64,000 nt of DNA from Marsupella aquatica (lineage: Eukaryota; Plantae; Marchantiophyta): NCBI GenBank assembly GCA_973895155.1, contig OZ316892.1:30743702-30807701 (forward strand), given 5' to 3'. Below are positions 2,185-64,000 of the stretch, piece after piece. Both the position numbers and the translations under genes were made by a program. Within the stretch, counting starts at the first letter, position 1, and every line of letters begins with the position of its first letter. The notes beneath the pieces are model-generated. The model did no database searches. It was not told the origin of the DNA and was given only the letters and a program-made list of their open reading frames with translations.

Positions 2185-2201
2185 TCCTGACAGCGGCGCC
2201 A
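2185..2201 (-). promoter_or_regulatory. Primer-binding site, tRNA-Asp-like (degenerate)
   Basis: Minus strand reads TTTT-TGGCGCCGCTGTCAGGA directly upstream of gag; it resembles the Athila-type PBS TGGCGCCGTTGCCGGGGA. Confidence 0.75.
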
Positions 2202-2220
2202 AAAACAAGCCATAGCCATA

Positions 2221-20299: not shown

Positions 20300-20316
20300 T
20301 AGCCCTCCACTCAAAA
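20300..20316 (-). promoter_or_regulatory. Polypurine tract of the gypsy element
   Basis: Minus strand TTTTGAGTGGAGGGCTA abuts the 3' LTR. Confidence 0.85.
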
Positions 20317-20400
20317 TTTGCTGTGTCCGCACAAGAAGTGAAATAATATATTTGATCAGGCACTTCTGAAGTGGCTCTTTAATGATGTGGAGTTGTAAAA

Positions 20401-20844
20401 TTACATTGGAGGCCAAGGGTCGAGTAGAGGCAATCGAGCAAGTCCTCTGATAGCGTGGGAGCCTTGAGTGCGAGAAGAGGAATGTAGTTGGAGTCTCTGT
20501 AGCTGTTCTCTGAGTTTAAGCAGATCCTTCTCATACTTATACTGAATTGCATATCCGTCATGAGCAACCCAGACATAGTAACGATAAGGCCATGGATGTT
20601 CTGGAGGTATAGGAGGAAAAGGACAAAGGGTTCTTCGAAGGGTATACACCCAACACCATATTTCATACTCAGAGAATTTATGTCTCCTGTCCTTATCTAT
20701 AGGTGGAACAACTTTAGGAAATTTATACGTAGGAATCAAAGTACGAATGCTGGAGGACATAATCCTGGCAAAACCTGTTGTTGCTGTCTGATACTCTCTA
20801 CTTCCAAATGCCTGAAAGCCATATGGTAGTCTTTCTTGGTCCAA
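20401..20844 (-). CDS. Possible small additional ORF in the gypsy 3' region, function unknown
   Basis: 147-codon open frame (first ATG at MSSSIR) overlapping the end of the accessory ORF; Trp/Tyr/Pro-rich with a short helical tail. No recognised domain. Confidence 0.3.
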   Translation of the reverse strand: MDQERLPYGFQAFGSREYQTATTGFARIMSSSIRTLIPTYKFPKVVPPIDKDRRHKFSEYEIWCWVYTLRRTLCPFPPIPPEHPWPYRYYVWVAHDGYAIQYKYEKDLLKLREQLQRLQLHSSSRTQGSHAIRGLARLPLLDPWPPM

Positions 20845-22826: not shown

Positions 22827-23160
22827 CGCTCAGTCAGCAATCTCTTCTGGCGCAGCTCCACTCTTCCCTCAATCAGGGTCGCCACCTCCTCTATATCAAT
22901 CATCGGTAATGAGCGCTACTAAACTTGGTTTCAAAAACCACTCGTCGTTTCTCTTCTTCGACCCATTAGACGTCACAATCCCTTGCCGTACTTGAGATCA
23001 TTCCAAAATTTCAACTTGTGCTGGACGCTTCAGAAAGCGTCTCAAAAAAAATTTTAAAAAAAATTTTCCAAACATAATCTTTTAATCTACTATTCTAAGC
23101 CCTTCCATACTAGTATTTCTTACAGATATAAAATATACCTATCCCAGCCCTCCACTCAAA

Positions 23161-26100
23161 CTACGACATGTCCTCATGCGCGGAATAGAAGTGATAGGGC
23201 TTTAATCTAAAGCCATTAATTCTAGTGTCTAAGGGGGATCCATCTAAAGTGGTTAAGGATACAGAACCATTAGGCCATATGTTCTCAATTCGATAAGGGC
23301 CGATCCAATGGGTATGTAATTTACCCGGAAAAAGCATGTAGCGGGAATCAAAAACTAACACTAAATCATTATTAGCTAGCTTAACCTGTTTAAGCTTTTT
23401 ATCATAAGAGTGTTTCCGGTTTGCTTGGACTACAGCAGTATGTTCTAAGGCTAAAAGTCTATTTTCTTCTAATTTCATAATATCAACAAACCGACTCTCG
23501 ATACTTGCTTCAAGGGTGAATCTCTCAGGAATAAGTAAGCGCTCAGTAGGAATGGAAAACTCAATAGGGATAATACTATCAACCCCATAAGTTAAATAAA
23601 ATGGGGTTCTAATTAAGGGTGGTAATCTTTTCAGCAGTACGGTAAGCCCAAAGCGCAGAGTGCAATTTTACATCCCAGTCAGTCTTGTGAGATTCCACCA
23701 TCTTATTCAGAATCTTGCCCATAATGCCATTAGCTCTCTCCGTTAAGCCATTAGCTCGGGGGTTGTAAGGAGTAGTTTTGCGATGCTTGATAAGATATAT
23801 GTCAGTAATTAACTCAATAGTTGAGTTAAGAAAATGTAGACCCCTATCGCTGACCAACTCCAAAGGACACCCGAACCGAGTAATAATATGCTCAAAGAGA
23901 AAAGCAGCCGCTGTTGTAGCATCATTCTTGCGAGTGGCTTTAGCCTCCACCCATTTGGTGGCATAATCAGTGGCCAGAATAATGTATTTGCTACGACTTT
24001 TCTTAGCGGCTGGTGAAATTGGGCCTACAAAATCAATACCCCATTTCTCAAAGGGGGCCAAAGGAAGGATGGGAGTGAGTGGCCATTTAGAAGATGCAGT
24101 GGGTTTGCCTACTCGTTGGCATGGATCACAGGTTTTAATAAAATTGTAGGTGTCCTTGTGCATTGTGGGCCACCAATATCCGGCATCTTGAATTTTCTTA
24201 ACAGTGGTGGTAACTGCATAGTGTCCGCCTGTCTCACCAGAATGTAAGGCTGCAATTACCTGTGGAATTTCTCTCATCTCAAGGCAACGCCGTAACCTTT
24301 GATCAGGGCCTTGCTTAAATAAGGTGCCTTTGATAATTGTATAAGGACCTACCTTATGTGCAAAAACAGCCTTCTCCTCTGCATTAAGTCCTTCTGGAAA
24401 GACCCCATACAGCAACATCTTCACAATATCAAAATATTTTGAGGACTCGCCTTCAATGTGCCAAAGGTGCTCATCCGGAAAGTCGTCAGACAGGTTGTGG
24501 TCATTCTCTGTACCTGGAAGTCTAGACAAGAAGTCGGCATTCTCATGGTGTTTCCCTGGACGGACTTGCACCTCGTAATCAAATTCCTGAAGCAGGAGGA
24601 CCCATCTAGCCACCCTCCCCGACAGGTCAACTTGATTAACCAGGTATTTCAAAGAATGATGGTCCGTGTGAAAGATGATCTGATATCCAAGAAGATAATG
24701 ACGAAACTTTTTGCAGGCAAAAACAATGGCTAAGGCTTCTCTTTCGGTAACTGTATAGTTTTTCTCAGCAGCACTCATCTGCCTACTGGCATAATAAATG
24801 GGATGATCCCTATTGTCGTCATCCTTTTGACTCAAGTTAGCTCCGATGCAGAAGGCAGATGAGTCAATGAAAACATGAAACTTCCTACTCCAATCTGGTG
24901 GGGAGAGAATGGGCGCAGTCACAAGGCGGTCCTTTAGTGTTTGAAAAGCTTGCTGTCTTTCTTCATTCCAAACATAAGGTTCATTTTGTTTGAGCAATTT
25001 GGTCAGAGGCATAGCAATATCAGCATGTTTATGAATGAATCTGCGATAATACCCGACATGCCCTAAGAAGGCACGGAGTTGCTTCAAATCCGTCGGAGGT
25101 TGAAGTTCCACGATCACCCGGACCTTTTCTTTGTCCACCTCTATGCCACGCTGAGAAATGACATGGCCGAGCAAGATACCTTCCTGCATTCCGATGAAGC
25201 ACTTCTCGGGGTGTAAGCACAATTGAGCTTCCCGACACTTCTGGAAAGTCTTATCGAGGTGCATTAAATGGTCAGCCGCCGATCCATACACACAGAAATC
25301 ATCGATGAAGATCTCCATGAAGTGCCGAAGGTACTCCTGAAAAATAATCATCATGATACGCTGAAAAGTGCCTGGGGCATTACACAACCCAAATGGCATC
25401 ATTGCATACGCATATGTACCCCAATCTGTTGTGAACGTGGTCTTGTCCCGATCCTCCTTTCGAATGGAAACCTGGTTGTACCCAGAGTATCCGTCCAGAA
25501 AAGTATACAACTCATGCAATGCGACCTGATCAAGCACTAGATCTATGAAGGGTAAGGGATAATGGTCCTTCCTGGTGGCTGCATTCAATTTCCGATAGTC
25601 CTAACACACGCGGATTTTTGTCTTTCCATCAGGTCCCGCCTTCTTGGGTACAATGACAATGGGGGATACCCATTCACTACTCAAGACGGGGTAGATGAAA
25701 CCAGCAGCAGTCAACTTATCCAGCTCCTCCTTCACAAGGACAGAGTACTTGGGGTTCAAACGGTACTGCCTTTGACGGACTGGCACTGCCCCTTCCATCA
25801 AGTCTATCCGATGCTCTCCCAGATGAGGGTGGATGCCCTTCAAATCTGAATGACTCCATGCAAAAACATCCTTGTACTGGGTCAACAACTTAATGTACAA
25901 GTCCCGCAACTCACCCTGGATATGCTTTCCTATATTAAGGAACTTGCCAGGTTCAATCTCAACTTTTTGACAAGCCTTAGGGTCCACTATACCATCCGTT
26001 AGGCCTGCTGGCCTAAGCTCCAAATCACCAACATCAGACTCACTGATTTCCGGAGAGGGAGGGTGTTTTCCATTACCGGAGGATACGCCATGCATTTGCT

Positions 26101-26173
26101 GATCTGAGAATTGTTTCCCTGTATCATGGCCGACTCCTTGTAAGTTTGCTTTCTCCCCTTCCGGTGGAAATTG
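23161..26173 (-). pseudogene. pol: Gypsy pol: RT, RNase H and integrase, with an in-frame TAG at 25601 and a frameshift near 23610
   Basis: SEWVSPIVIVPKK, FLDGYSGYNQ, MPFGLCNAP, FIDDF, DSSAFCIGA, TDHHSL, H...GH...CDPC, WGIDFVGP, SDRG, NGLTER and W-x-GPY motifs. Confidence 0.95.
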
Positions 26174-29100
26174 TCAAAAAGGGTCCTCAGAAGCTAATCC
26201 AGTCTCCACAACTGGATCAGATAGGTAAACCTCCAAATAGCGTACCTCCTCCAACTCAAACTCCAATGGCTCCAGAATCAGGTTGGAATCCGAAAAGTCT
26301 GACGTATACCCGTCGTCAGTTTGCGTCTCGCCCTTATGATCCTCAGTAGCCCAACTCACCACCACCTTGGGTTTACCAAAAGACATCTCTTGAGCTTTCC
26401 AATTTACCTGCACTTGGGCTTTATACAACCAGGGGCGGCCTAACAAGACTGGAAAGCTGGAAGGTACCTCTGGACTTATTATCACATATTCAAAAGTAAA
26501 TGGAACACCAGCAATCAGAGTATCTACCTTACTTAATTTTCCCGCGGGAACAACTCGAGATTGGTCCGCCATGCGCAGGATCTTGGGTGTTGGTTCAAAC
26601 TTAGTAAATCCAAGATTAAATGCAGTTTGCTGAGTCATGAGGTTGACGCTGGAACCACCATCCACTGGTACTCTCCTCACAACACATCCTTGAATTTGTA
26701 CGTCCAGCTCTGGTGGTCCCTTATCCTCCCATTCCAAACGTAATACATCCACCTCTGGCAACTTACGCCGCCTTCGCTTTCCTGCCAACAATCCTCTCAA
26801 TTGGCGTCTATAAACCGGGTTGTCTTGCAACAACTCACCAATGGTGATATGAGCAAGATGGCCCTTCACGTCTTCTACAATATCATATCCCTGTTGCTTT
26901 AACACAGGTCGTTCGGGCTCCTTCACCACTGACTTCTGAATTGAATGCGAGGTGTGATCTTTAACTAGTTCCTCTAATTGAGCTTTTACTTCTGAAGAAA
27001 TGTCAGGTAAAAAATATTTGGGATCATAGCGATCATAAGCTGGGTCCTGATCCTTGGGTAGGCCTTCCTCAAATGGAGCTCGTTCCTTCGGCTTAGGTCC
27101 CTTCTTTTGGTGCTTCGCTACTGCTCGTTTCTCCTCTTTCCGCTTGGAACGAGTAGTTGCATAGGTATCCGTTAGAACTTTATCCCGATCCTGAACTCGA
27201 GCATTAGGCATGCCCACCACCCCTGGCTTCACCAAGTGATCCACTAACACATCAGGAACAATTCCGGCCAGTGGTTGAGCAAACGTGGAGTGGCCTGTCA
27301 CTTCCACTCTGTTCACATCCCCATGGTGGATCATTCCACAATGCTCAACCTCTTCAGAGTACACCATCCTCACTTTAGCCTCTGGTCTGATTGTCTCCTT
27401 GACAGGCTCTTGAGCAAAGCGAACCATCATTTTTGTTTTAGGCGGATTTGGACATTCCACAGGCAAGTGCCCTTCCTTGCCACAATTTCCACATATAGGG
27501 GTGTATCCCTCTTCTCTCTTCGGATACGGACATTGCGGTGAGTAGTGGTCCGGCTGACCGCAATTCCAACAGGATCCTTTCTGCCGTGGAGCTCCTCTAG
27601 GGGGGTATCCTCCTGGAGGTCCCATAGGCGGCCTGGGAACAGGTCTGTTGAAGGCAGGTTTTGGCGGTACCCAATTATTCATTGGTGGAGGGGCAGGTGG
27701 GAAATACTGACCTCCTGGTGTTGCCTGAACTGCATATGCCGGCTCGTATTCATAATCTTCTACCTCCTCCGGTCCTTCCAAGTAATTTACTGCCATACGC
27801 CAATTTGGGCACTCCGTCGGATAGTGCCCTTGCTGATTACAATGGGTACACCACACGTTTGTCCTCATGGTTGGTGGTAATCTTCGCACAGGTTTCACCG
27901 TAGCAATATGTACATTCAGCTTAGATAGCTTCCCGGTTATTTCCTCCATCATGCGATCCATTTTTTTCTGAGTAGAAGTCTTAGGCTCTACCTTCGAGGT
28001 TGACTTCTTCTTCTTGGAGGCGGACTGTTCCGAATCTGAACTAGAACTAGAGCTAGCGCTCGCACTAGTGCTTGAATCCGTACTCTCATCGTCTTCACTA
28101 CTGCTGCTGTCACTATCGTCCTTCTCCGAATCAGATTTAGACTTTGATTTTTTCTTCTTTTTCCTCTTATCTTTCTTCAAGTCTTTCCTCACTCGCTTTT
28201 TCTCAGAAATTTCAGAATCCACATACTTCTGCGCTGATTCCTGAACTTCCTCCAAAGTAGTACCACCTTCACGCCTGACATATCGAGCAATTCGTGACGG
28301 CAATCCGTTGATAAACCAATCCTTCACAGTAGACTTAGATGTGGCTGGATTATATTGGTCCACCAAATCCAACAGTTTATCCGCATATTTCCTCACAGAC
28401 CCATGTTTCTTCATGTGTAAATGAGAGATCCTAGCAAAAGCTCGAGCGGCAGACCCCTCCTCTTTGTACTTAGCCAAGAAGGCAGCCTTCAACTTACCCC
28501 AGTCATGTTTATCTGGAAAGCGATCATACCACTTTTGAGCTCTCTTCTTCATCAGTCCACCAAATAAATTAGCCTTTTCCGCATCTTGGCTTTGTCCATT
28601 TGAAGCTGCAGCAGCTTCAAATTCCTTCAAATAGACTTCTGCATCCTCTTTAGATGATCCAAAGAATCTATCATATCTCACATTGTTACGAGCCATTATA
28701 GTAGGACTTAGATTAGGGATGGGCAAGGCAGATCGGATGGCAAACGGATTAGTCCAAGTTTGAGGACTTAATACAATAGAACTACTAGATTCTGAACTAC
28801 TGCCGGAGCTCTTCTCGCCTGAAGACGACCCTTCTGATGAATTAAATGCTGTGAAGCCTTCAAGTTCTTCTAGAGTTGGATTCTGTTGTAAAATCCCTTC
28901 GACATCTGATGGTTTCCTTGAATGCTGTGGTGGACCAATCAACTTGGGTCCGGATCGCAAATTCACATATAAGGGTCTACTGGGTGCAGGATTTTCCAGA
29001 GTCCCTTGGGTTACCCTAGTCTGAATGGAGGTTACCTTCCTTGTCACACTTCCCGGTAAAGGGAATTCTGATGCTTGAAACTCAGACAGGAGGTCTCGAG

Positions 29101-29182
29101 GCTCCACTGCCTTGCTCGAGGATTCTGATTTATAAGAAGCTTTCCTCCATTTCTTTTTGATTTGGCGAGCTTCCTCCGACAT
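26174..29182 (-). CDS. gag: Gypsy gag-protease polyprotein (1002 aa)
   Basis: Capsid-like region, three CCHC knuckles (CTHCNQQGHYPTEC, CWNCGQPDHYSPQC, CGNCGKEGHLPVEC) and a retropepsin motif VDGGSSVN...LLGRPWL. Confidence 0.93.
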   Translation of the reverse strand: MSEEARQIKKKWRKASYKSESSSKAVEPRDLLSEFQASEFPLPGSVTRKVTSIQTRVTQGTLENPAPSRPLYVNLRSGPKLIGPPQHSRKPSDVEGILQQNPTLEELEGFTAFNSSEGSSSGEKSSGSSSESSSSIVLSPQTWTNPFAIRSALPIPNLSPTIMARNNVRYDRFFGSSKEDAEVYLKEFEAAAASNGQSQDAEKANLFGGLMKKRAQKWYDRFPDKHDWGKLKAAFLAKYKEEGSAARAFARISHLHMKKHGSVRKYADKLLDLVDQYNPATSKSTVKDWFINGLPSRIARYVRREGGTTLEEVQESAQKYVDSEISEKKRVRKDLKKDKRKKKKKSKSKSDSEKDDSDSSSSEDDESTDSSTSASASSSSSSDSEQSASKKKKSTSKVEPKTSTQKKMDRMMEEITGKLSKLNVHIATVKPVRRLPPTMRTNVWCTHCNQQGHYPTECPNWRMAVNYLEGPEEVEDYEYEPAYAVQATPGGQYFPPAPPPMNNWVPPKPAFNRPVPRPPMGPPGGYPPRGAPRQKGSCWNCGQPDHYSPQCPYPKREEGYTPICGNCGKEGHLPVECPNPPKTKMMVRFAQEPVKETIRPEAKVRMVYSEEVEHCGMIHHGDVNRVEVTGHSTFAQPLAGIVPDVLVDHLVKPGVVGMPNARVQDRDKVLTDTYATTRSKRKEEKRAVAKHQKKGPKPKERAPFEEGLPKDQDPAYDRYDPKYFLPDISSEVKAQLEELVKDHTSHSIQKSVVKEPERPVLKQQGYDIVEDVKGHLAHITIGELLQDNPVYRRQLRGLLAGKRRRRKLPEVDVLRLEWEDKGPPELDVQIQGCVVRRVPVDGGSSVNLMTQQTAFNLGFTKFEPTPKILRMADQSRVVPAGKLSKVDTLIAGVPFTFEYVIISPEVPSSFPVLLGRPWLYKAQVQVNWKAQEMSFGKPKVVVSWATEDHKGETQTDDGYTSDFSDSNLILEPLEFELEEVRYLEVYLSDPVVETGLASEDPF

Positions 29183-29236
29183 ACCTCATTCTTAGCAATA
29201 GTAAAACTTCTCTCCCCAGTTAATTGTCTTGCTACA

Positions 29237-29590
29237 TTACTGAATCCAGGTCGTACTCAGAAGTATTGAAGGAAGATGTGATTCATGAGGCCCCATTATG
29301 AAGAAATCCAGGTGGTACAGGCGATCACCAATTTGAATAGGTACTACCCTCATCTCCCCCACAGGTTTAATCAATTGGCCATTGATCCAGAACTGTGTGT
29401 AAGTTGGTAAAATTGGTATGAGAGCCAGATTCTGAGCCAAACGAATAGAAAGCAAATTAATTCGAGAGCCCCTGTCTATTGAAACTTCCTTAATCAGGTA
29501 TCCCGCCAATCTCACCTGAGATTCAAAAGAACTTTGGATGGCTCTTGTGAACACATTGGAGGGATGCATGGTAGCTTTGATTACAAGCAT
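29237..29590 (-). CDS. Stand-alone retropepsin-like (aspartic protease fold) ORF upstream of gag
   Basis: EVSIDRGSRINLLS...KPVGEMRVVPIQIG...LDFFIM...SILLSTTWI parallels this element's own protease RVPVDGGSSVNLMT...VPAGKLSKVDTLIAG...FEYVII...VLLGRPWL. Confidence 0.65.
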   Translation of the reverse strand: MLVIKATMHPSNVFTRAIQSSFESQVRLAGYLIKEVSIDRGSRINLLSIRLAQNLALIPILPTYTQFWINGQLIKPVGEMRVVPIQIGDRLYHLDFFIMGPHESHLPSILLSTTWIQ

Positions 29591-30523
29591 CTTTCAATGC
29601 CACTCAAATTTTGAGAAAACACCCACTACAGATGGAAGCGGTCACCTTGGCTTTTCCCAAGGGGCATGCCTCTTGCACCTTGTGTCGAGGGATTCGAACA
29701 GGTATGTCCATTCAACTCTTGGGAATCCAAAGTGTCTGGAAACCCATTCAATGCCTTGGAGATCTTCTCCTGACCCCTCTTCATATCCTTCTTTGGCTAG
29801 GTTTACCGCAGCACTTCCTATCTCATCCCCCTATTGGGCCCCATTTCACCTTGAAGCATTGTACTAGCCAATTCCGAAATAGAAATTACAGTATATCTCT
29901 CCTGAGTAATCCTACCATTTAATCTCAGCATTACCAAATGCAAATTCAAACCTTCCCACCATATTATGGACAGCCAATGAACTCCCCTTCTACCCCTCAC
30001 ACTTAACACCCATGTTTGCACATATTGATTATGCAAATTCCTAACTCGTAGGGAGCCTAATGATCTAATGGGTGGGGGCATTCTTCAAGAATCCTCCACC
30101 CCTAAGGTTGGCTTACAGCCTAAGTATCTCAATAATTTTTAGCATTGGCTCTAACACTTATCCTAAACAAATTGATCTCTTCAATAAAAAGGGTAAAACT
30201 CTTTCCAAACTTCACCTATAATCCACTGATTATCTTAATCTCGATTCCTACACACAGAAATCTCTTTCTTCACATGGAAATCAAGCACCCTTGAGGCTAT
30301 CCTTTTTGGCCTTAATTTCCTTCCTTCTCCTTCTCCTATTAAGGAGGGCTTCCTCCCTCATCATCTCCCGGAAAGCTTCCGGGGCATTTGCTAGGGTGAA
30401 GGGTCGAACCTCCAGCACCTGAATTGGCCATTGTCCTGAATCTTCCATTAAGTAACTCCTTCTGACCAATTCAACCTCCTCGGTTGGCATTCACTGCCTT
30501 GATATCAATCCATTCCATACTGT

Positions 30524-30541
30524 TCCCCGGCAGCGGCGCCA
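30524..30541 (-). promoter_or_regulatory. Primer-binding site, tRNA-Asp type
   Basis: Minus strand TGGCGCCGCTGCCGGGGA, 9 nt after the 5' LTR end. Confidence 0.9.
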
Positions 30542-30550
30542 AAAATCATA

Positions 30551-32268
30551 TGTCGTATAGCCAAAAGAACAAAAAGGAACACTTTTTACATAAAGACTCG
30601 GAATACGATCCCTTTAAGAACAGATTTGGAAAGAATTGAATGAATTTATCTCTCTGAGTAATCTAAAGCTCTCAGCACATAGATTTCTTGTTTCTCACTA
30701 AAAGATCAAATAAACAAAACACCAAAGTAAATAAACTTCTGTCTTATGAGTCAAGAGAGAGTCAATTATGGTCTGAAAACTCTGATTAGCTATTGCCACT
30801 CCTTCAAAAAGGACTATGGTCTTAGAATAGACATAAAACAAGTCTCATAACTCACTAATTTCTCTCCTGACTAAATAAAATTGCATGATAAGGAATTTCC
30901 AATTTGCTAAACAAGTATTGCTCTGGTTACAAATGTAATGATATGACTTAAGATGCCGGCAACATGGTTTGACATCAGCGATACGCAATTCCGTCAAACA
31001 CTAAATCATATTCCATAAACAAAGTAACGGTACTGAATACTCTGAGAACCAAACTTTACTTCTCACATATCAAACAACAACTCTTGAATTAGCTAGCGAA
31101 TCTTGACCCTTCAAGCAAGCCTAGCAGTGAATTCAATGTAAGTCACAGAAGTTTGTAACTGAATTCAAGTATCAAGAAATTTCTTGAATTCATAAATTCA
31201 AACATAAGTTTTACTTCCATACAAGACTTTTCTTGTTAAAATGGAAGGAGGGAAACTAACAGAAGTCTGATTGGAATTGTCCCCCCCTTCTTCCGAATGG
31301 AAAAACCATGAGGTTTTATAAGTAAAGGTTCCCTTAACTGAAAAGGCATGACTTTTCAAACCTCAAATATCTAAAAGACAATCCTAAAAGAAATAAAGAA
31401 ATGCATTGGAGACTTAGTGGACGCTTTGTAGAGCGTCGGTGCTTTCCGGTAAAACTAATAAACAATGGTGTTAATCTAATTTTAACTTCTAAACTAAAAG
31501 TCGGAATGAGCTGAGACTTTTCTAGAGTACTCTACTACATATAATCTCTATGCTGGTAAAGTTTCAGACTTTTCTGAGGTCTCTAAGTGCCTCAAATAAA
31601 TCGGTGAAAGTGGCACGGTGTTATAAAAGTATGGAAATCAGAAATATTTCTAAGTGTCGGGAAGATAGTGGACGCTTCAGAAAGCGTCCAAAACTACAAA
31701 GGACTTTTATGGACGCTTCAGAAAGCGTCGGCTGAATTTTGAGGTTTGGTCGCGGCGTCCGTCTTCCGGCCTTCAGGTGGGACGCTTCAGAAAGCGGCGA
31801 AGTCTGTCTTGGCGGACGCTTCAGAAAGCGTCGATTCTGCTTTGTCTTCTAACACGGTCGGACGCTTCACAAGGCGTCACTTCTCATGTGGACGCTTCAG
31901 AAAGCGTCTCATCGGACTTTGGGGTTAGCGGACACTTCAGAAAGCGTCTTAAAGCGTCCGGTGTCTGGTTCGAATAGACGTTTCACGAAGCGTCTTCTAT
32001 TCCGTGGTATCGGTGAAGGACGGCTCAAAAAGCGTCGTGGTTAAGGGGGTCGCATCTGGTTGGCAGCAACCGTGGACGCCTCAGCTGTCTTGAGGTTTAT
32101 TGGCTTTGTAACTGGGGACGCTTCAGAAAGCGTCCTTAGTTAGACTAAGTGAGTTAACCGCCAAATGGAAAGTAGACGCTTCAGAAAGCGTCGTTTTTGC
32201 TCAAAAAGTTTGAAACGATTCAGATTTTTCTCTTATGGTCGTGTTTCAGCAAAAGTCTCCTTTCCACA
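30551..32268 (-). repeat. Gypsy 5' LTR (1718 bp)
   Basis: Direct repeat of 18582-20299. Confidence 0.97.
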
Positions 32269-49140: not shown

Positions 49141-49255
49141 TGTGATGCCTAGCCAGGAATCACTCGGCCAGTTAAGTGGGTAAAGCAGGAATGCACCCTG
49201 GAAACACCTTAGTATAGGGATAAAACAAGGAAAATATAAACAATTAGGGGCGACT

Positions 49256-52200: not shown

Positions 52201-52578
52201 GGAGTCTGAGATCGTGACGGAGCTCGACAAGGAGCTTAGAGCAACCCAGGAGGAGAGGGCTACCTTGAAGAAGGAATTGGAGGAAGCCCACAGGGAGCAG
52301 GAGGAGACCAAAAACGAGCTGGAGGGGGCACGTAAGGACCTGGATGAGACCCAGGAGGAGTTGGAGGAAATCACGAGGAAGATGGAGAACCTACAGCGGC
52401 GGGCCAACAACCAAATAGAGCGGCTGAAGAAACAAGCCGCAATATTTAAATGCTTAGCTGCAGCAGGTCCATCTCCCGTTGGGGCGAACCAGTTACCAGG
52501 GGTGGTAATTGCCGAAGGACAAGCCGCGCCACCTGCACCAGTGCCGGAAGTAAGTGGGAAGGGGAAGGGACCAGCTGC
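49256..52578 (+). pseudogene. LTR-encoded PMD-like/coiled-coil protein, copy 1 (three in-frame stops; continues at 61278-61626)
   Basis: ORFs 49256-49504, 49517-49981, 50057-52111, 52166- and 61288-61626 are colinear with the 1220-aa ORF at 57534-61196. Confidence 0.9.
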
Positions 52579-54246
52579 TGTGGTGCGTCCCATGGCTCCC
52601 TAAACCCAAGCAACCCCCCAGCTCAAGCCGATTCCCGCGGGTTTCACGCTTGGCGAGGCCGTTTCCGCGGCTTAGCGGCATGGGACGCTGCTAACCTTCT
52701 ACTACTACTATTAACATTTTACACACATATACTGGACAGATCCTTCATCGGGTCATGAGATACGTAGCCGGCCTAATATAGGCCTTCCCCTGTCTTCCCC
52801 TGTCTTCCCCTCCGTCTTGTTAGGTATGTTTGGATTCCGCCGCCGGAATGATCCCCAATAGGCTTGGTTAAGCCGCTAAGACCTCTCTCAGCTCGACACA
52901 TCCAACTCTCACTCCCCTGCTTACTTTCCTTCCTTCTGTTGATGTGGGCACTCTTCACACAAGTTAATGCGACACACAAATAGCAAAATGACTCATTCTG
53001 ACTGAGTCATACCATGCACTTGCCATACAAACAGTACATCTCATACACAAGTTCTGCGAACTAAGCCGTGAGGCCAACTCTATTCAGCTCTTAGGCATGA
53101 GGAAACATGAATATACACAAGGGTCACTGTATGACTGTCACTTGCCTCTCCAACGGTTAATACGTGCAAACCGCACTTTTCTTCGCTTAAACCGTTGGTA
53201 TCGTATTACGGGGTCGTGGAGGGACGCTATTTGGATTCTTTTCACACCAGGATGAGTATTTTGGTTTCCGCTCCCGGAAATGTAGGTTTTGATCAAGTCT
53301 ACCGACTACCCTCACCCCACAGCTTTTGATCAAGTCCTGCCGACTACCCCACTACACCTTCACTCGGAGTCACCCAAAGAGTGCTGTCACCACCCCTACT
53401 CACAAGGCCGACTCAAACCAAGCAAGTTTCTTCAAATCATAGAACGGGAGAACACAATTCGGAAAGCGAAAAAGGGAGAAGGAACACACAACAAAAGCCC
53501 ATCAAGTCAAATGTACAGATCCATATCTCTTGGGAAAAACGATACACATTGCATGAGTAACCCGGCCTCCTGCCGTCTACTCAACTCCTGCCTCTCCGGA
53601 CAATGAGTATGGCTCCCCCTCACTACTCTGAACACGCTTTCAAACTCCTCAGGCTCCACTCTATCCCTCCTTGCTAACTTCACACTGAGTCCCCCTAACT
53701 ACTTCGGGGCTATCCCCCTAAATACTGAAAAATCACACCAAAGCACCCCTCACAGGGTCACAACGGTGGCGGCTACCCTAGCGGCGCCGCTAAAACCTTG
53801 CACTAAGAGAAATCCTTAAACTGAAGAGGAGCATGCGGCACACACATGCTGCTAAAACCCTAAACCCAAAACAAGGGGGCCGACGGTGCCTTCGACGGCG
53901 CCCCAACAGTACACGTGAACCCTGAAAGTGAGAGGCACCCCAAAATGGCCGAAACTAGGTGCCCTTCCAAGTGCACACCTGAGCTCACCCCTGGATAGCT
54001 CTTCTTTTCCTGCTTCCGAATCACTAAGTCGCTCCCTCAACGGACTTCAGACGCCTGAGTTATGGCCGTTTCCGTACCGCAAAAACATAAGTTCTCCAGG
54101 CCATAACTTGCTCATCCTGGCTCCGTTTGAGGAGCGCCGCCTCTTGTTGGAATCAGCTCCGCGAGCTCATCCCAACAAGCCCATGAGTGACCCCCCACTA
54201 AAATGTTGGAAATCTGGAGGCCGTACACCCACGTCCGTACGCCTAT

Positions 54247-56103
54247 CTAATCCTCCTCTTCTTCTTCGCTCTCGGTGCCCGGACTTGTGCCCCGTGAGTG
54301 GTCCTCCTCCTCATCACTCACGGGAGTGAGTGCCACCGTACTTTTCTTCTTCTTCGACGGAGTACTCTTAGTGCTGCTGCTCCCGCGCTTCCTCAAAGCA
54401 GCCAAGGCCTGCCACGCCTTGATGTACCCCTCACCAATTGTGTCCTTCCAGAGGGTAGCCTCTTCTCCGGACCGCAACTCCAACGGTAGAACTTGCCCCG
54501 TGGCCATGGGAGTCCCGGGGGTGACAGACCTGGGTGGCATCCCCGTACTGACCTGAGCCTCCCGTAACGATTTCCGTACCTCCCGGAGCTTCTTCTCCAA
54601 GCTCTTACTCTTCTCCTGACTCTTCTTGGCTCCATCCAACAAGGGTCCATACTTCCCACTAACCTCCTTCACCACCATCTCGATAGCTTGGGAGATCACA
54701 TCCGGGGAAAGTGTGGAGCCAGGTGTGCCGGGACTCTTCCGTTTCCCTAGACTCAGGGCCTCACTTCTCTTCGCTCGTGTCTCAAAGGCTGCCACCTGAC
54801 TCCGTAGTGCTCCCACCTGGTTCCTCCACTCCATCACTTCTCCAGAATTTTGCTTCTCTTTGGCCAATGCTTGCCTCAACGCTCCTACTTCTTCTGCTTC
54901 CTTGGCCTTGGTGGACAAAGCTCCCTTCAAGTTGGTGATCTCTACGTGAGCTGCATTGATGTGCCTGACCTTCTCATGAATGGTCTGCTCCTTGGTCTTG
55001 ATCACCTCCTTCAGTGACAGGATGCTCTGCTCTAACGTCTCTACTTTGACTGTGGCGTGCTTGAGAGACTCCCTCAATGCGTGGACTAGCTTGAGTCCCT
55101 CGTGGACTCCCTCTCTGAAATCCCGTAGCTCTGCCAAGTAAACATCCGGAATGTTGTATTCCAGAGGCTGTTTCGGATCTCCCACGAGTGATTCAAGCCA
55201 CTCCAATGTGCAATCATCCTCCTGGTTCTCTTCTTCTCTATTATCCTCCCCACCAGCAGACAATGATTCCTCCGTGAGCTTCCCTAAAACGGTAGTGGCA
55301 ATACTCCGGATCTCCGTGGTGAGAGATGATCCCGTGTCTTCATGCCCCGGAGAACCAATCAACCCTTCTGCCCTGGCCAATACAAATGACCCCATCAAAT
55401 GTACAGCCCCACCTGGTTTCACACTCCCGGGCTCAGCGGCCAATAGCTTCTTCAATCCGTAGCACCACCATCCGTACACATGGGCTGGGTAGTTCTTGAT
55501 GTCCATAGCTACCACGAAATGCTCCTCATTCAGCACTCCGGATTGCACGTTGCCAAGAACCCGTTGATGCACCTTGGCCAGGAAGCCCTTATACTCAACA
55601 TCCTTGACAGCAGAAAGAGGGATGGCGGTGGTGGAGGTAGGATTGGTCACCCAAGTGGCCACCATTTTCAACGTGAGTTCTCCCCTGATATTCCGAGGTG
55701 TGAATGAGAATTTCTGATTCTCAAGAAACAATAGCTTAGCCAACTCCACATGGGGCACTACACGTTTGAGACATTCAAAGTAGATTCCCTCCGTTCGGAA
55801 CTCCATCCCGGCCTCAATGTCCCAGCTCTTCCCTGAAGGGATGGTAATCTCCACCTTCATGAATTCTGTAAGCCCGGTGGCTTGGAAAATGTTCCGACAA
55901 TCCTCCATCACCTTGGTGGAGGTCTTGGGATAAATTCGACGAAAAATCTTCCTACCCACCGGTGAGGAACCCGCTGCCAATCCCGTGCTCATCATAACTT
56001 CTCTCTCTTCCCTTTCCCGTGTAATCCGAGTCTCCACGTAGTCACGGTAAGCAGCCTTGTATCTCCGAATGCGTGACGCACTAAACTCTGGTTGATCTAG
56101 CAT
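54247..56103 (-). CDS. Intact LTR-encoded protein: globular, possibly PMD-like N-terminus, coiled coil and basic/acidic tail
   Basis: 618 codons, ATG-initiated and uninterrupted; IFQATGLTEFMKV resembles FMAGSGLEAFVRL of the 1220-aa protein; heptad-rich LKHATVKVETLEQSIL...; NLS-like SKKKK. Confidence 0.8.
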   Translation of the reverse strand: MLDQPEFSASRIRRYKAAYRDYVETRITREREEREVMMSTGLAAGSSPVGRKIFRRIYPKTSTKVMEDCRNIFQATGLTEFMKVEITIPSGKSWDIEAGMEFRTEGIYFECLKRVVPHVELAKLLFLENQKFSFTPRNIRGELTLKMVATWVTNPTSTTAIPLSAVKDVEYKGFLAKVHQRVLGNVQSGVLNEEHFVVAMDIKNYPAHVYGWWCYGLKKLLAAEPGSVKPGGAVHLMGSFVLARAEGLIGSPGHEDTGSSLTTEIRSIATTVLGKLTEESLSAGGEDNREEENQEDDCTLEWLESLVGDPKQPLEYNIPDVYLAELRDFREGVHEGLKLVHALRESLKHATVKVETLEQSILSLKEVIKTKEQTIHEKVRHINAAHVEITNLKGALSTKAKEAEEVGALRQALAKEKQNSGEVMEWRNQVGALRSQVAAFETRAKRSEALSLGKRKSPGTPGSTLSPDVISQAIEMVVKEVSGKYGPLLDGAKKSQEKSKSLEKKLREVRKSLREAQVSTGMPPRSVTPGTPMATGQVLPLELRSGEEATLWKDTIGEGYIKAWQALAALRKRGSSSTKSTPSKKKKSTVALTPVSDEEEDHSRGTSPGTESEEEEED

Positions 56104-56529
56104 CCATGCATCCCGAAATCAATTTCTCAATCACCAATCCCGTCACCCGTGGCAATGTCAATTCCCTGGCCCGAAACAGCCCCCGTAGCCCGATCACTTA
56201 AATTCTCTCAATTTCCCGTCACTACTCCGTGCGGCCGCCACTAATGCCTGGAAGAATGACGCCAGCAAGCCCCACTAATCCACCATGAAAGAGAGAGCTT
56301 CAAAAATAATTAGAATCTGGAGAGAGCTTCCGGCAAGAGAGAGAAGAACCCCGTTTTTGCTTTCGGCAATGAGAGGGTCGTGCAAAAGGAAGAGGGAAAG
56401 AAAAAGGAAGGAAAAAAAAATAGAACCGAAAAAACTCCTGGCGCCTTCGCCATGCGCCCCGGCCCATTTCTCGGGCCTTACCCTTGCGTCCTCCTGCGCG
56501 CGGCCCTCTGCAGGGCGCGCGGCCATTCC

Positions 56530-56805
56530 TCCCGGCTCGCGGGAGGCCCTTCAACTCCCCCCCGCTCGCGTGATCCTCCCAGCTCGCGGGAGGCCCTTTA
56601 ACTCCCCCCCGCTCGCGTGATCCTCCCAGCTCGCGGGAGGCCCTTTAACTCCCCCCCCCCGCTCGCTTGCGCTCCTTCAGCTCGCGGAGCCTCATTAATT
56701 GCCCGGGCACGCAGCCCTATGGGCTCGCGAGGCAGCCCCTTCAGCTCGCGGAGCCCCATTAATCGCCCGGGCACGCAGCCCTATGGGCTCGCGAGGCAGC
56801 CCCTC
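56530..56805. repeat. GC-rich tandem repeats (about 47-bp and 64-bp units) built on GCTCGCG
   Basis: GCTCGCGGGAGGCCCTTYAACTCCCCCCCGCTCGCGTGATCCTCCCA about 2.6 times, then CAGCTCGCGGAGCC...GGGCTCGCGAGGCAGCCCCT twice. Confidence 0.85.
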
Positions 56806-57533
56806 TTTCTCTCGGACGGCCACTAATGGGACTCGCCCTCCTGAGGAGGGATTTATTTAAAAAAACCCCCCCCTCTCCTGACTTTGCAATGGGGGTCTCA
56901 ACAATAGCTCTTGAAGCAAAACGGTAAGTCCTATGGGGCTGGTCCTGGCTAGTTTCAAGGTCCCAAAATATTTGCCCACTTAGGTCGCCGCAAATCTTAG
57001 AACTATTATGAGAGAAAGAATATAAAGTCACCTGGGGCATCATCAACCTATAATGACGGAATTAACTAAAAATTAAAAAATGGCTTATTTACATTGACTA
57101 TTAACAAGGTATCGGCCTTTGCAACCAGTTATGTGTGACTTCCCGTGACGGGGTACCCGTCACAATGACTAACCGAGAGCTTCTCGTACTACTTGATCCC
57201 AGCCCGGCTGGTGCAAACTAAAAACTTGCTAAAGAAGAGGCCCTGAGCTCCCCGCTGCCCAGGTACTTATCCTGGTAGTGGATCCGCCATTCTTTGCATC
57301 GTAAGCCTAATCTACTTAACAGTAATCTACTTGCCCGAATCTACCTATGTACAGCAAGGCAGGAGCACAAGTGTTGCTCCTACCAGTGGGACCGCAATCC
57401 CACTAAGCTAAGTGTCAGGGCCGCTCCTGGTTCTGATCCTAATCCTAAACGTGGAGATCCGTGCCCGCCCTGCCCACTCACGCCTCCTCCCTCCACGTCC
57501 GCCCTCCCTAAAAGGAACGGCGCCCTTGCACCG

Positions 57534-60500
57534 TCACGACACCGGTGGTGGATCCTCAATGGACGCCCCCAACACTTCCTCCGCAGCCACTGCCGTTGGC
57601 CCGCCTACTGACAGATTACCTGCCCTTGACCGAGTCAACTCTCCCTCGGCCTGACTGGGTCCACCTTCGGCTTCAGCCTCGACACCGGCCTCGGCAATAC
57701 CCACGGCTTCGGCTTCAGCCACCCCCACGGCTTCGGCTTCAGCCACTCCCACGGCTTCGGCCTCCCCTTCCCCTAGGGTAGTTGGATCCTTAGCCGTGAC
57801 CCTGTCTGGGGTCGGTGCTGGGTCTACCTCCTTGATCACCACGGCCTGTGAAGTCGTATTACTCCTTGACCCTGAAGGTTTCCGCTTCTTCTTCGTTGGT
57901 GGCTCGGCAGCTGGTCCCTTCCCCTTCCCACTTACCTCCGGCACTGGTGCAGGTGGCGCGGCTTGTCCTTCGGCAATTACCACCCCTGGTAACTGGTTTG
58001 TCCCAACAGGAGATGGACCTGCTGCAGCTAAGCATTTAAATACTGCGGCTTGTTTCTTCAGCCGCTCTGTTTGGTTGTCGGCCCGCCGCTGTAGGTTCTC
58101 CATCTTCCTCGTGATTTCCTCCAACTCCTCTTGGGTTTCATCCAGGTCCTTACGTGCCCCCTCCAGCTCGTTTTTGGCCTCCTCCTGCTCCCTGTGGGCT
58201 TCCTCCAATTCCTTCTTCAAGGTAGCCTTCTCCTCCTGGGTTGCTCTTAGCTCCTTGTCGAGCTCTGCAATGATGACAGACTCCATCTGGTTCATCTTGG
58301 CGTAAGTCTGTTCGAGCATCTCGTCCTTCTCCCTTAGGTCGGCCTTGAAGCTGGCCGTCAGGGACGCAAGCTCCTGCTGCAGCGCCATAATCCCTTGATA
58401 GGATTTCCCTAACTCGACCTCCTTCTGCTCAAGGGCTCCGCGGATTTTCTCGAGCTCCCCTTTCAACGCCCATTCCTTTCTTTGGGTCTCCGCCATGGCC
58501 CGGCTGTTGGTTGTTATGTGGGCCTCCTCTGTATTCTTCAGCTCTTGCTTCCACTTTTCCCTTTCTTTGATCGTGTCGGCCAACTCTTCCTGCGTCTGAG
58601 TCAGTTTATCCTTGATATTCTGATTATCAGCCTGCGCGGCGTCCAACTGCCCCTGCATGATGTTCAGCTCATGTCGTTTAATCCGCAGTTCATCTTGGGC
58701 TTTCTTGGCCGCCCTTAGATCTTCAATCTCGGCTTCCATCCTCCTAAGCCGCCGAATGACCTCGTCCTTCTTGCTTCTCTCTAAAGCCACCGCTTCTTCT
58801 AATTGGTGCTTCTCCAACTGCTCCCTATGGAAAAAGGGTCCTACCTCCAACTCCTCTCCAAAGATGCCGAGCGCAAGTTCCCCACACATCTCACCATACT
58901 CCATGGCTCTATTCTTAGCGTAGGTGGAGTAAGTAGAAGTGATCGGCATCGCCCATCGTGGCCTCTGCTCCCAAGCCGTCCTGCGGATCTCTTCAATCGT
59001 GGCTAGAGGTTTGCTTCCTTTTTCGGCTAGCCGCCTGATGTCCTCCGGCCAATCTCCTCCTGGTAAATCCTTTTCCTTAGCCAGGGCGGCCTCTTCCTCC
59101 TGCTTGATTCGCTCCTGAAATTCCTGCACCGTCTGTTTTATGCCGTCGAAGCTCGGGGGAGCAACATCTGGTGGGGGAGACTCAGGGCTACTCTGCTGGT
59201 TGGGGTCCCCTCGCACTACCCTTGGAAGTGTGGGGACAAACCGGCCACAGGTCCTTACTCCTGGAACGTGATGGTCTGACCCATAGCCGGAATTATCATG
59301 GCTGCAGTCCTCCACTGCCTCCTCTACCTCTTGGATTTCCGGCTTCTCCCTCTCCTCTTCCTCGGTAGGAGCTTCAGGCAATTCTGCCTCAGATTCGGAG
59401 CTTGAGGTTCCCACGTACATTCGAACACCTGGCTTGGATTCCGGCCTGATTCTCTCCTTGTCTCCAGCAAAGGGGTTTTCTCTTGTGAGCCGGTGTCGGC
59501 CTACCTCTGTAGTAGTGTCCTGCATTGTTGCCGTTGCCGTTGTTGTTGCCGATGCCGATTTCTTTTCTTTCTCCAGTAGTTTCAGCAGACTCTGCATGCC
59601 TGGTTGCTGCATCGGCAAGTCTTCCTTCCTGGGCCTAAACACCTGCTCGATCGTAGGACTAACAGGTGGTTGAGGCTTCTCAGCCAACGGCCTCGGCGTT
59701 GGAGCTTCCTCGGGTGCCCTTACCTGCAGGGGAAGTACCGGGGCAAAAGTCTGACCTCTGGCATACCGGCACAACAGCGGCATGTGATAGCCAAGCCGCG
59801 ACACGCTCCCCATGCCGATTACCTGCTGCTCCTCCTTTAAGATCTTCTTCAATTGGTTGAGGAGGTACCCGTTGTAGTCCCGGCTTGGGTCTGGCCTTTC
59901 TGCCAGATAGACCTGTGCCTTGCCGATCTCTGCCCTCGGCAAGTTACAATGCATCGTCACCCGCAAGAAGTCGATCATCTCTCCTATGTGCGGGTTGGTG
60001 CAGGTGTTCCGGAAGAAGCCATTCTTCGTTGATGGCCCGGGGAACGACCGGAACTCCTTGTCAGGCAAGGTCTTCCTGGTATCAACTTTGGTCTTATTGC
60101 CCATCGGCAAGCCAAACACTTCGGCAATCACCTTGGGAGTAAGATAGAAATCCTTCCCATATATCCTCGTGCAATTGGTCTCGGGTTCCCATGACCCCAC
60201 GAATTCTAATAGGTCTGACTCCGGTACCTCCGGCTTCAGCCATGGTAATCTTACAAAGGCCTCCAAGCCGGATCCGGCCATGAAGCCTTGGTACTTCTTG
60301 GTCTGCATGGCCGTAAAGCATGCATCCTCCTCCCGTGCAAAATGTAGTTGCACCTCCACTGGTAGGGTTGCCGCCCAGCCCTTCCAGGTGTCATCCCTGG
60401 TTGGAATGGCCTTGATGGGATCGACCTCCTCCTCTTCGGCTTCTCCCTGCCTCCTGCTCTGCTGCTCGGCTGGCTTCTTTGGTGCCGCCGACCTCGTTCT

Positions 60501-61196
60501 TTTTGCCGGGGTGGCTTCATCGTTGACGGCTCCCTTCCTCTTCATCTCTGCTGCCGTGGAGGTTTCTCCTAGCACCGTTGCCTGGGTCCACCTTTCCGTG
60601 CTACCCTTTAATTCCCAGTGTATGTCGTTGCAGTTCTTGATGGCCTCTCGGATGCCGACGACGCTGTCCTTGCAAAACAGAAGATCGTCGAGTTGATTGG
60701 AAGTAGGCGTCCACAGGAACTCGTCCTTGATGAGTTCGCCTCCTAAGAAAGCCGTCTTCTGCAGCTCCCACAATCGAGCGAGCTCCTGCCGTTCTCGAGC
60801 TGCCTTTTCTGACTCCTCGTCCTCGTAAGTCTTGATGTACTCAGTTGCCCGTTCGAACAGGCATCCCCAAAAATATGCCGCTTGATTGACGTTGCTCATA
60901 CCCTCCTTAGGTTGATCGTCGGTATCTACTCTCTCCCCGAGTGCTTGCCTAAGCAGCTGACAGTAGTTGGCCTCCCGTAGTCGTCTGCCTAGTTCGTGCT
61001 CGCAAATGAGCCACCATCTCCTGCAAGCGCTCCTTACCCCTCTCCTCTGCCGGTCCTTCTTCCCGTTGATCCTTCCTAGCCGCCGACGTTTAACGCGCCC
61101 TAACCCTAATCGGGTTTTCACCCTTAGCCTTACCTCCGGCTTCTGCCCGGGTTCCATGGTTGCCCCTAATTGTTTATATTTTCCTTGTTTTGTCAC
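57534..61196 (-). CDS. Intact ~1200-aa LTR-encoded protein (basic N-terminus, PMD/plant-transposon-protein-like domain, long coiled coil, acidic tail)
   Basis: Uninterrupted 1220-codon frame (first ATG at 61157) wholly inside the solo LTR; SGLEAFVRLPW...LLEFVGSW...IYGKDFYLTPKVIAEVFGLP; about 250-aa heptad region; NLS-like PPTKKKRK. Confidence 0.9.
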   Translation of the reverse strand: MTKQGKYKQLGATMEPGQKPEVRLRVKTRLGLGRVKRRRLGRINGKKDRQRRGVRSACRRWWLICEHELGRRLREANYCQLLRQALGERVDTDDQPKEGMSNVNQAAYFWGCLFERATEYIKTYEDEESEKAARERQELARLWELQKTAFLGGELIKDEFLWTPTSNQLDDLLFCKDSVVGIREAIKNCNDIHWELKGSTERWTQATVLGETSTAAEMKRKGAVNDEATPAKRTRSAAPKKPAEQQSRRQGEAEEEEVDPIKAIPTRDDTWKGWAATLPVEVQLHFAREEDACFTAMQTKKYQGFMAGSGLEAFVRLPWLKPEVPESDLLEFVGSWEPETNCTRIYGKDFYLTPKVIAEVFGLPMGNKTKVDTRKTLPDKEFRSFPGPSTKNGFFRNTCTNPHIGEMIDFLRVTMHCNLPRAEIGKAQVYLAERPDPSRDYNGYLLNQLKKILKEEQQVIGMGSVSRLGYHMPLLCRYARGQTFAPVLPLQVRAPEEAPTPRPLAEKPQPPVSPTIEQVFRPRKEDLPMQQPGMQSLLKLLEKEKKSASATTTATATMQDTTTEVGRHRLTRENPFAGDKERIRPESKPGVRMYVGTSSSESEAELPEAPTEEEEREKPEIQEVEEAVEDCSHDNSGYGSDHHVPGVRTCGRFVPTLPRVVRGDPNQQSSPESPPPDVAPPSFDGIKQTVQEFQERIKQEEEAALAKEKDLPGGDWPEDIRRLAEKGSKPLATIEEIRRTAWEQRPRWAMPITSTYSTYAKNRAMEYGEMCGELALGIFGEELEVGPFFHREQLEKHQLEEAVALERSKKDEVIRRLRRMEAEIEDLRAAKKAQDELRIKRHELNIMQGQLDAAQADNQNIKDKLTQTQEELADTIKEREKWKQELKNTEEAHITTNSRAMAETQRKEWALKGELEKIRGALEQKEVELGKSYQGIMALQQELASLTASFKADLREKDEMLEQTYAKMNQMESVIIAELDKELRATQEEKATLKKELEEAHREQEEAKNELEGARKDLDETQEELEEITRKMENLQRRADNQTERLKKQAAVFKCLAAAGPSPVGTNQLPGVVIAEGQAAPPAPVPEVSGKGKGPAAEPPTKKKRKPSGSRSNTTSQAVVIKEVDPAPTPDRVTAKDPTTLGEGEAEAVGVAEAEAVGVAEAEAVGIAEAGVEAEAEGGPSQAEGELTRSRAGNLSVGGPTAVAAEEVLGASIEDPPPVS

Positions 61197-62545
61197 TATA
61201 CTAAGGTGTTCCTAGGGTGCCTTCCTGCTTTACCCACTTAACCGGCCGAGTGATTCCTGTCTAGGCATCACAGCTGCCGAGCCAGAAATGAAGAAGAAGC
61301 GGAAACCTTCAGGGTCAAGGAGTAATACGACTCCACAGGCCGAGGTGACCGAGGAGGTAGACCCGGCAACGACCCCAGACAGGATCACGACAGAGGATCC
61401 AACTACCCTAGGGGAAGGGGAGGCCGAAGCCGTGGGTGAGGATGAGGCCGAAGCCGGGGGTGATGCCGAGGCCGGTGTTGGGGCCGAAGCCGAAGGTGGA
61501 CCCAGTCAGGGCGATGGAGAGTTGACTCAGTCAAGGGCAGGTAATCTGTCAGTAGACGGGCCAACGGCAGTGGCTGAGGAGGAAGCGTTGGGGGCGTCAA
61601 CTGAGGGACAAACACCGCTGCCATGACGGTGGTGGAGGGCCGCTCCTTTCAAGGAGGGCGGACGTGGAGGGAGGAGGCGTGAGTGGGCAGGCGGGCTCGG
61701 ATCTCTAAGTTTAGGATTAGGATCAGGACCAGGAAGCGGCCCTGACACTTAGCTTAGTGGGATTGCGGTTCCACTGTAAGAGCAACACTTGTACTCCTGC
61801 CTCGCTGTACATAGGTAGATCCGGGCAGGTAGATTACTGTTAGGTAGATTAGGCTTACGCTGCAAAGAATTAGGCGGATCCACTACCAGGATAAGTACCT
61901 GGGCTGCGGGGAGCTCAGGGCCTCTTCTTTAGCAAGTTTTTAGTTTGCACCAGCCGGGCTGGGATCAAGTAGTAATAGAAGCTCTCGGTTAGTCATACTG
62001 TGACCTTGTGTATATTCATGTTTCCTCATGCCTAAGAGCTGAATAGAGTTGGCCTCACGGCTTAGTTCGTAGAGCTTGTGTATGAGATGTACTGTTTGTA
62101 TGGCAAGTGCATGGTATGACTCAGTCAGAAGGAGTCATTTTGCTATTTGTGTGTCGCATTAACTTGTGTGAAGAGTGCCCACATCAACCAGAAGGAAGGA
62201 AAGTAAGCGAGGGAGTGAGTGTTGGATGTGTCGAGCTGAGAGAGGTCTTAGCGGCTTAACCAAGCCTATTGGGGATCATTCCGGTGGCGGAATCCAAACA
62301 TACCTAACCAGAAGGAGAGGAAGACAAGGGAAGGCCTAGAGTAGGCCGGCGACATATCTCATGACCCGATGAAGGATCTATCCAGTATATTTGTGTAAAA
62401 TGTTAATAGTAGTAGTAGAAGGAAGTTAGCAGCGTCCCATGCCGCTAAGCCGCGAAAACGGCCTCGCCAAGCGTGAAACCTGCGGGAATCAGCTTGTGCT
62501 GGGGGGCTTCTTGGGTTTAGGGAGCCATGGGACACACCACATTTT

Positions 62546-62563
62546 TGGCGCTAGATGGAGGGG
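62546..62563 (+). promoter_or_regulatory. Primer-binding site, tRNA-Asn type
   Basis: TGGCGCTAGATGGAGGGG after the LTR end CA-TTTT; one mismatch to the complement of the plant tRNA-Asn 3' end as recalled (TGGCGCTAGAAGGAGGGG). Confidence 0.75.
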
Positions 62564-62610
62564 GCATTTCTTAAGCCGTGAGATATGAAGTTAGGAAAGA
62601 AGCGTAGGTA

Positions 62611-63954: not shown

Positions 63955-64000
63955 TGTGATGCCTAGCCAGGAATCACTCGGCCAGTGAAGTAGGTAAAGC
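63955..64000 (+). mobile_element. Start of a third copy of the 4.7-kb LTR family, inserted into gag
   Basis: TGTGATGCCTAGCCAGGAATCACTCGGCCAGT matches 49141-49172; no PPT precedes it. Confidence 0.85.

Follow-up and report, generated by a model that had tools for sequence, protein, structure and literature searches.

An intact 618-aa accessory gene inside a probable solo LTR of the liverwort Marsupella aquatica

To our knowledge, the long terminal repeats (LTRs) of plant retrotransposons are regarded as lacking genes, and a solo LTR is seen as a dead end. The subject of this analysis is a 4029-bp unit, probably a solo LTR, that carries an intact open reading frame (ORF) of 618 aa; it lies in a 64,000-nt stretch of Marsupella aquatica DNA (GenBank assembly GCA_973895155.1, contig OZ316892.1, forward-strand positions 30,743,702 to 30,807,701), hereafter the window. 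Extra ORFs (eORFs) of plant elements are classed only as 5′ or 3′ internal in the available part of one source, in which LTRs reach up to ~5 kb (PMC6317226), and are described as internal only in PMC7264820 and in the accessible sections of PMC11963269. No paper on a plant LTR that contains an entire gene was found, as judged by titles and the starts of abstracts, with most subscription papers outside the coverage.

The gene of the unit shares its fast divergence with the accessory genes of related elements, namely Athila ORF1 (PF03078), the PMD of Ogre (PF10536), and TRP28 plus SMC of Retand, Grande and RIRE2, as far as the accessible text of the sources goes (PMC6317226, PMC7264820, PMC11963269). 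The eORF/aORF elements and the unit are alike in a globular transposon domain, an SMC-like coiled coil, a predicted nuclear location and a target-site duplication (TSD) of 5 bp, and the ORF of the unit lies in sense, as does the 3′ ORF of Athila. In those elements, however, the gene is found in the internal region, whereas the unit holds the whole gene in an LTR-like sequence, in which it survives solo-LTR formation; the location of the entire gene within an LTR is the unusual feature, not the kind of protein. A complete ORF in an LTR is also known as sag of mouse mammary tumour virus (MMTV) and, in part, as nef of HIV, and the U3 promoters of MMTV can transcribe sag (PMC12789967, available portion). 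Sag is a retroviral membrane superantigen, whereas the product of the unit is larger (618 aa), predicted to be nuclear and encoded by a plant retrotransposon, and no sequence link is expected. Retrosat2, RIRE3 and RIRE8 with their ORF0, as well as Ogre, resemble the unit in LTRs of 3–5 kb, many solo LTRs and an extra ORF, but ORF0 is located upstream of gag-pol and not in the LTR (PMC3485330, in excerpt). VANC anti-silencing proteins and MAIN, a PMD protein, have a fold in common, and proteins with the Athila domain were modelled as coiled-coil pentamers (both PMC13547354, partial text); PMD proteins are silencing factors (PMC5418596, partial text). Going by models, VANC and the PMD proteins MAIN/MAIL1 probably belong to the same fold clan as the 618-aa protein, with a coiled coil in addition (same partial texts). 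VANC and the 618-aa protein are both transposon-encoded, VANC by Mutator DNA transposons and the 618-aa protein, unlike it, by a likely LTR retrotransposon; a role of the latter as chromatin regulator is predicted by analogy. For liverworts, Tat elements without aRH (PMC13468544, available sections) and the presence of Athila, Phygy and Tat in one species (PMC12885004, available sections) have been described.

The unit is read here, with a probability of roughly 0.62, as a solo LTR from a non-chromovirus (Athila/Tat-like) Ty3/gypsy family that was active recently, carrying the gene for a predicted nuclear coiled-coil PMD/ATHILA-like regulator. Its features are:

53136..57164, minus strand: likely solo LTR, 4029 bp, TG...CA; sense is the minus strand
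53131..53135, no strand: left TSD copy ATGAC, 5 bp
57165..57169, no strand: right TSD copy ATGAC
53260..53279, minus strand: 20-nt motif, U5-like, near the LTR 3′ end, common to three other LTR ends of the window
54247..56103, minus strand: intact 618-aa accessory ORF, start 1061 nt from the 5′ end of the unit, stop 1111 nt before its 3′ end
55381..55935, minus strand: globular domain, residues 57–241, predicted to be PMD/ATHILA-ORF1/Transposase_32-like through a homologue
54769..55128, minus strand: predicted coiled coil, ~residues 326–445, from weak Pfam coiled-coil hits, all below cut-off
54247..54390, minus strand: basic KKKK patch resembling a nuclear localization signal (NLS), and acidic tail
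56527..56804, no strand: GC-rich tandem repeats (47 bp × 2.8, 64 bp × 2) 5′ of the ORF, in the putative U3/own-promoter region

The unit starts with TGTCAC and ends with GTCACA, directly between the two copies of ATGAC. The other copy of the host repeat has one ATGAC only at the matching site (62004-61991 region), and the empty site was common in all four sequencing runs compared, over 52900-56300 including the 53136 end of the unit. Neither self-BLAST nor end-to-end alignment of the first against the last 300, 600 and 1100 nt revealed terminal repeats in the unit, direct or inverted, that exceeded the level of shuffles. Inside the unit, a primer-binding site (PBS), a polypurine tract (PPT) and paired repeats were searched for and not found, tblastn with two gag proteins as queries gave no gag match, and a terminal hairpin at the 5′ end was not significant (z -1.76). 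Three other classes of element were considered and rejected. Terminal-repeat retrotransposons in miniature and large retrotransposon derivatives (TRIM/LARD) consist of an internal region enclosed by a pair of terminal direct repeats, which the unit does not have; for a DNA transposon with terminal inverted repeats, the inverted end alignment was at shuffle level and no transposase family was detected; and Phygy/Selgy elements are short, with a 4-bp TSD and no eORF (PMC6317226 supplement 3), whereas the unit has a 5-bp TSD and an extra ORF.

The host and neighbouring elements used for comparison are:

52579..61272, minus strand: solo LTR of family L into which the unit is inserted, TSD GCTGC, 4.66 kb when the insertion is subtracted
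61157-57534, minus strand: 1207-aa ORF of family L, inside the L solo LTR 52579..61272
49141-52578 + 61273-62541, plus strand: second L LTR, followed by PBS-like TTTTTGGCGCTAG and gag ORF 62611-63966
63955: start of a third L
2190..2384, minus strand: end of an LTR from a third family, with its last base at 2221 and the motif at 2365-2384; PBS-like TTTTTGGCGCCG and broken gag come next
18582..32268, minus strand: intact Ty3/gypsy element, 1718-bp LTRs, TSD ACCAT
22826-20736, minus strand: 696-aa accessory ORF in the internal region of 18582..32268, after pol and before the 3′ LTR

Family L is a proven coding LTR of 4.7 kb that contains its ORF: one copy is solo with the TSD GCTGC, and the outer copy runs into a PBS-like sequence and gag. 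Identity between the two L copies is 92%; their ORFs differ at 298 sites, 156 of them third positions, and the ORF of the other copy is broken. The L ORF starts only 116–374 nt into the LTR and leaves a tail of ~0.92 kb 3′ of the ORF, similar to that of the unit. The PBSs of the neighbouring families are of TGGCGC type. Nesting is threefold, with the unit in the solo L LTR and the latter in an L LTR of opposite orientation (49141-62541). LTR, PBS and gag of L run straight into the third L at 63955, before which no purine tract is present; 62542-64000 may be a nested insertion or else an element that has no pol.

On the basis of the TSD, the ends and a motif common to two PBS/gag-adjacent LTR ends, the identification of 53136..57164 as a solo LTR is held with good confidence. 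The 53136 end (330 nt) was aligned to the PBS-adjacent LTR end at 2221 with a score of 42, which none of 300 shuffles reached (highest 28), and this LTR end was the best match among 764 window segments. The 20-nt motif has exactly four exact matches in the 64 kb (2365, 52829, 53260, 62279), carried by the LTR end at 2221, the unit and both L copies, always 120–260 nt from the LTR 3′ end; two of these four ends then run into PBS and gag, and the LTR of the complete element 18582-32268 is without the motif. The position of the motif fixes the orientation of the unit, and therefore the ORF lies in sense. The motif is kept near the 3′ ends of LTRs from three families that otherwise cannot be aligned, and is a candidate packaging, polyadenylation or protein-binding signal; a search for it in metagenome contigs gave no match. 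The four letters ending the loose contig ends at 53136 in sequencing run X1 equal those before the two PBS-adjacent LTR ends, an agreement at random level that was not counted.

Of the earlier claims about the unit, drawn from the letters alone, those of TSD ATGAC with TG...CA ends, of no internal LTR pair and no gag/pol (the latter also by Pfam), and of a single intact 618-aa ORF hold, and the proposed layout of globular domain, coiled coil and NLS-like patch was seen again. That the unit is a solo LTR agrees with the TSD, the ends and the shared end motif, but a copy beside PBS/gag or PPT/pol was not seen.

At least 10 of 14 listed sequencing runs contain part of the unit, and 6 contain at least half of its words. 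No RNA run was among the listed holders, which carries no information on expression. Contigs identical to the window had a depth of ~1600 in X1 and ~6000 in run X2, against ~19 and ~33 for single-contig variants (17–22 in X1), which suggests tens to hundreds of near-identical copies, depth not being a copy number. At least six X1 contigs exit at 53136, and the flanks that they enter are unrelated, with an agreement of 0.48 where random flanks would give 0.47. The unit is a young, multi-copy, mobile repeat, and across contigs of 200–480 nt its copy in the window matches the dominant subfamily without a difference. Among the 40 listed of 518 variants, 9 of 12 in the ORF were synonymous (expected fraction 0.23), with 10 of the 12 inside 60 bp and therefore not independent. 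Of 58 indels, 12 were listed: one in the ORF, in frame, seven in the non-coding part of the unit and four in the flank. From the synonymous excess, the 618-aa ORF looks to be under selection.

The longest stop-free frame of the unit has 623 codons, beyond the maximum of 258 in 300 shuffles, and all other ORFs of the unit have at most 111 codons. In the 618-aa protein, the N-domain is helical, weak Pfam coiled-coil hits span ~residues 310–490 and KKKK is located at residues 584–587. Pfam gave no gag/pol domain in the ORF, and no family above the curated cut-off for the 618-aa protein or the six homologues scanned. A hydrophobic segment is missing (maximum 19-residue hydropathy 1.09), and an env-like ORF was rejected for want of a transmembrane segment. 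From the coiled coil, the basic patch and the absence of a membrane segment, the best guess, by analogy, would be a nuclear, oligomeric regulator of the element.

Among 1.84 billion representatives, 13 proteins matched the 618-aa protein at E ≤ 0.001 with 25–62% identity; the matches span the N-domain as well as the C-terminal part, and four of eight homologues looked up originate from the leafy liverwort Calypogeia fissa. Residues 57–241 matched the Calypogeia protein P0012 with 28% identity (E 1e-15). In the Atlas, the model of P0012 gave TM scores of 0.66 (ATHILA), 0.64 (Transposase_32), 0.61 (PMD) and 0.56 (DUF1985) to the respective clusters over 172–183 residues, such plant clusters making up 8 of 10 rows, all rows being "under the bar" and obtained for the 28% homologue (pLDDT 0.51), not for the 618-aa protein. 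Its own domain gave a weak lead to an ATHILA cluster (0.76) in a feature search. With the poor AlphaFold2 model of pLDDT 49.9, a fold search returned nothing at E ≤ 0.001 in PDB or BFVD and a best Z of 5.8 at a root-mean-square deviation of 6.3, mostly single-helix matches, and a profile search of PDB sequences yielded coiled-coil noise only.

For the neighbouring proteins, a 63% relative of the 696-aa protein matched Transposase_32 (E 0.014), the 696-aa and 3832-5517 proteins are homologous (E 5e-19), and hhalign with trimmed alignments gave a score of 31 between the 696-type and 1207-type domains, with 0/60 shuffles as high. BLASTP of the 618-aa against the 1207-aa protein gave only E ≥ 0.47, and no direct homology was detectable. 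The 618-, 696-, 1207-aa and 3832-5517 proteins probably fall into one PMD/ATHILA/Transposase_32 clan, with the 618-aa protein the most distant; the latter is then probably not a new kind of protein and would belong to the clan from which non-chromovirus Ty3/gypsy elements usually have their accessory ORFs. Word-index homologue searches gave none among 7994 candidates for the 618-aa protein, none among 670 for the 1207-aa domain and one among 1063 for the 696-aa domain. A protein search of metagenome contigs produced 36 pattern matches, none confirmed.

The sequence-only reading had given the neighbour protein 1220 aa, which is 1207 aa from the first ATG. Its little sequence identity to the 618-aa protein was borne out by BLASTP; "unrelated", as said of the unit, nevertheless goes too far, since the end motif is shared with L and one fold clan is probable. 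Coding LTRs in more than one family are supported, with L proven, but a lineage-wide design is an overstatement: the 696-aa ORF is internal to an element with non-coding 1718-bp LTRs (99.8% identical, no ORF of at least 80 codons).

In the reading as the solo LTR of an Athila/Tat-like family, a full-length element would have inserted first, and LTR–LTR recombination would have deleted gag-pol and left one LTR. The gene would originally have been one of the usual accessory ORFs that follow pol and precede the 3′ LTR, as in 18582-32268. The 5′ edge of an LTR is determined by the site at which plus-strand synthesis is primed; a shift of this priming to a position upstream of the gene would have placed it in U3 and copied it into both LTRs, and the last ~1.1 kb of the unit would then be the classical promoter/R/U5 part. 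Both gene positions occur in the window: the 696-aa gene is internal, whereas the 1207-aa gene lies in a proven LTR and the 618-aa gene in a likely one. The ~1.06 kb 5′ of the ATG would serve as the promoter of the gene itself, so that solo LTRs could still express it. By analogy, the protein would oligomerise via the coiled coil, bind element DNA or chromatin and activate the element or counter its silencing in trans.

The limits given above for read depth, for the clustered ORF variants and for the Atlas rows weigh against this reading, together with the following. The stretch of the unit end matching the LTR end at 2221 is ~36 nt only, and the motif pattern was built from its own hits, which makes its chance figure flattering. 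Among short public contigs (24 of 531 loose ends listed), the unit was never seen next to PBS/gag or PPT/pol. AlphaFold2 models of the 618-aa protein were poor (pLDDT 33.6 from the single sequence, 49.9 from eight sequences), and in hhalign of its profile against the 696- and 1207-aa families the score was equalled by 27/60 and 19/60 shuffles, respectively. Neither a TATA box nor a transcription start was identified for the unit, and no vestigial PPT plus TG marking an old LTR start was found 3′ of the ORF.

The best of the other explanations, though an unlikely one, also takes the unit as a solo LTR, but with silent solo copies; expression of the gene would be confined to full-length elements, in which splicing or readthrough gives access to it in the 3′ LTR, as with HIV nef, and the gene would be intact because the copy is young. 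Identity of the window copy to the dominant subfamily makes its intactness uninformative on expression of its own, and both the short distance from the LTR start to the L ORF and the broken ORF of the other L copy favour silence. Against it, the 1061 nt 5′ of the ATG of the unit, with the GC-rich repeats and a pyrimidine-rich tract, leave room for a promoter, and U3 promoters can transcribe an LTR gene in the case of sag (PMC12789967, available portion). Less probable still is a self-standing non-autonomous element, composed of LTR-type ends and one accessory gene and moved whole by the enzymes of another family. An internal partner was not found, depth suggests many near-identical copies, and a length of 4 kb comes close to that of the longest plant LTRs (~5 kb in the available part of PMC6317226), all of which would suit such an element; reverse transcription, however, requires PBS, PPT and paired repeats, none of which is present inside the unit, a DNA transposase would find no terminal inverted repeats to use, and family L next to the unit, which is built in the same manner, is a genuine LTR. 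Capture of the gene from the host or a virus, with no relation to the 696- and 1207-aa proteins, would fit the missing direct sequence or profile link and the lack of a Pfam family above cut-off, but is very improbable in view of the structure matches of P0012, all to transposon accessory clans, of an ORF without introns whose homologues are fragmentary and repeat-like, and of a search of viral contigs in which nothing was found for the 618-aa protein.

Taken beyond the single unit, the reading as a gene-carrying solo LTR would lead to a tentative and rather doubtful proposal, that several liverwort Ty3/gypsy families moved a PMD/ATHILA-type gene into U3, possibly repeatedly, and that their solo LTRs remain as self-standing genes, some dozens to hundreds, by which the full-length copies still present are activated or de-silenced in trans. 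Solo-LTR formation is the main way of the host to delete retrotransposons; with a selected gene of 600–1200 aa in the LTR, it would not eliminate the regulator of the element, if the reading is true, and would leave regulator genes behind. The growth of some plant LTRs to 4–5 kb would likewise be explained. One gene clan in internal and in-LTR position within 40 kb offers a natural side-by-side comparison, and the function of the accessory proteins, long open, becomes testable because gene and likely target share one 4-kb unit.

Elsewhere in the window, the accessory ORF at 3832-5517 (plus strand), a homologue of the 696-aa protein, is broken by two internal stops and runs antisense to the gag remnant 2100-422; 15 candidate TG/CA/TSD pairs, about the chance number, were obtained for the surrounding element, and no boundaries were fixed. 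The gypsy element 18582-32268 is enclosed by a Copia element (15023-35476) with 346-bp LTRs of 99.7% identity. The window contains no tRNA genes. An intact 1104-aa organelle RNA-editing factor of PPR-E-E+-DYW type with 303-nt repeat units is encoded at 38733-42047 (minus strand), and a short telomere-like array, (AACCCTA) × 5, is located at 45186-45222.

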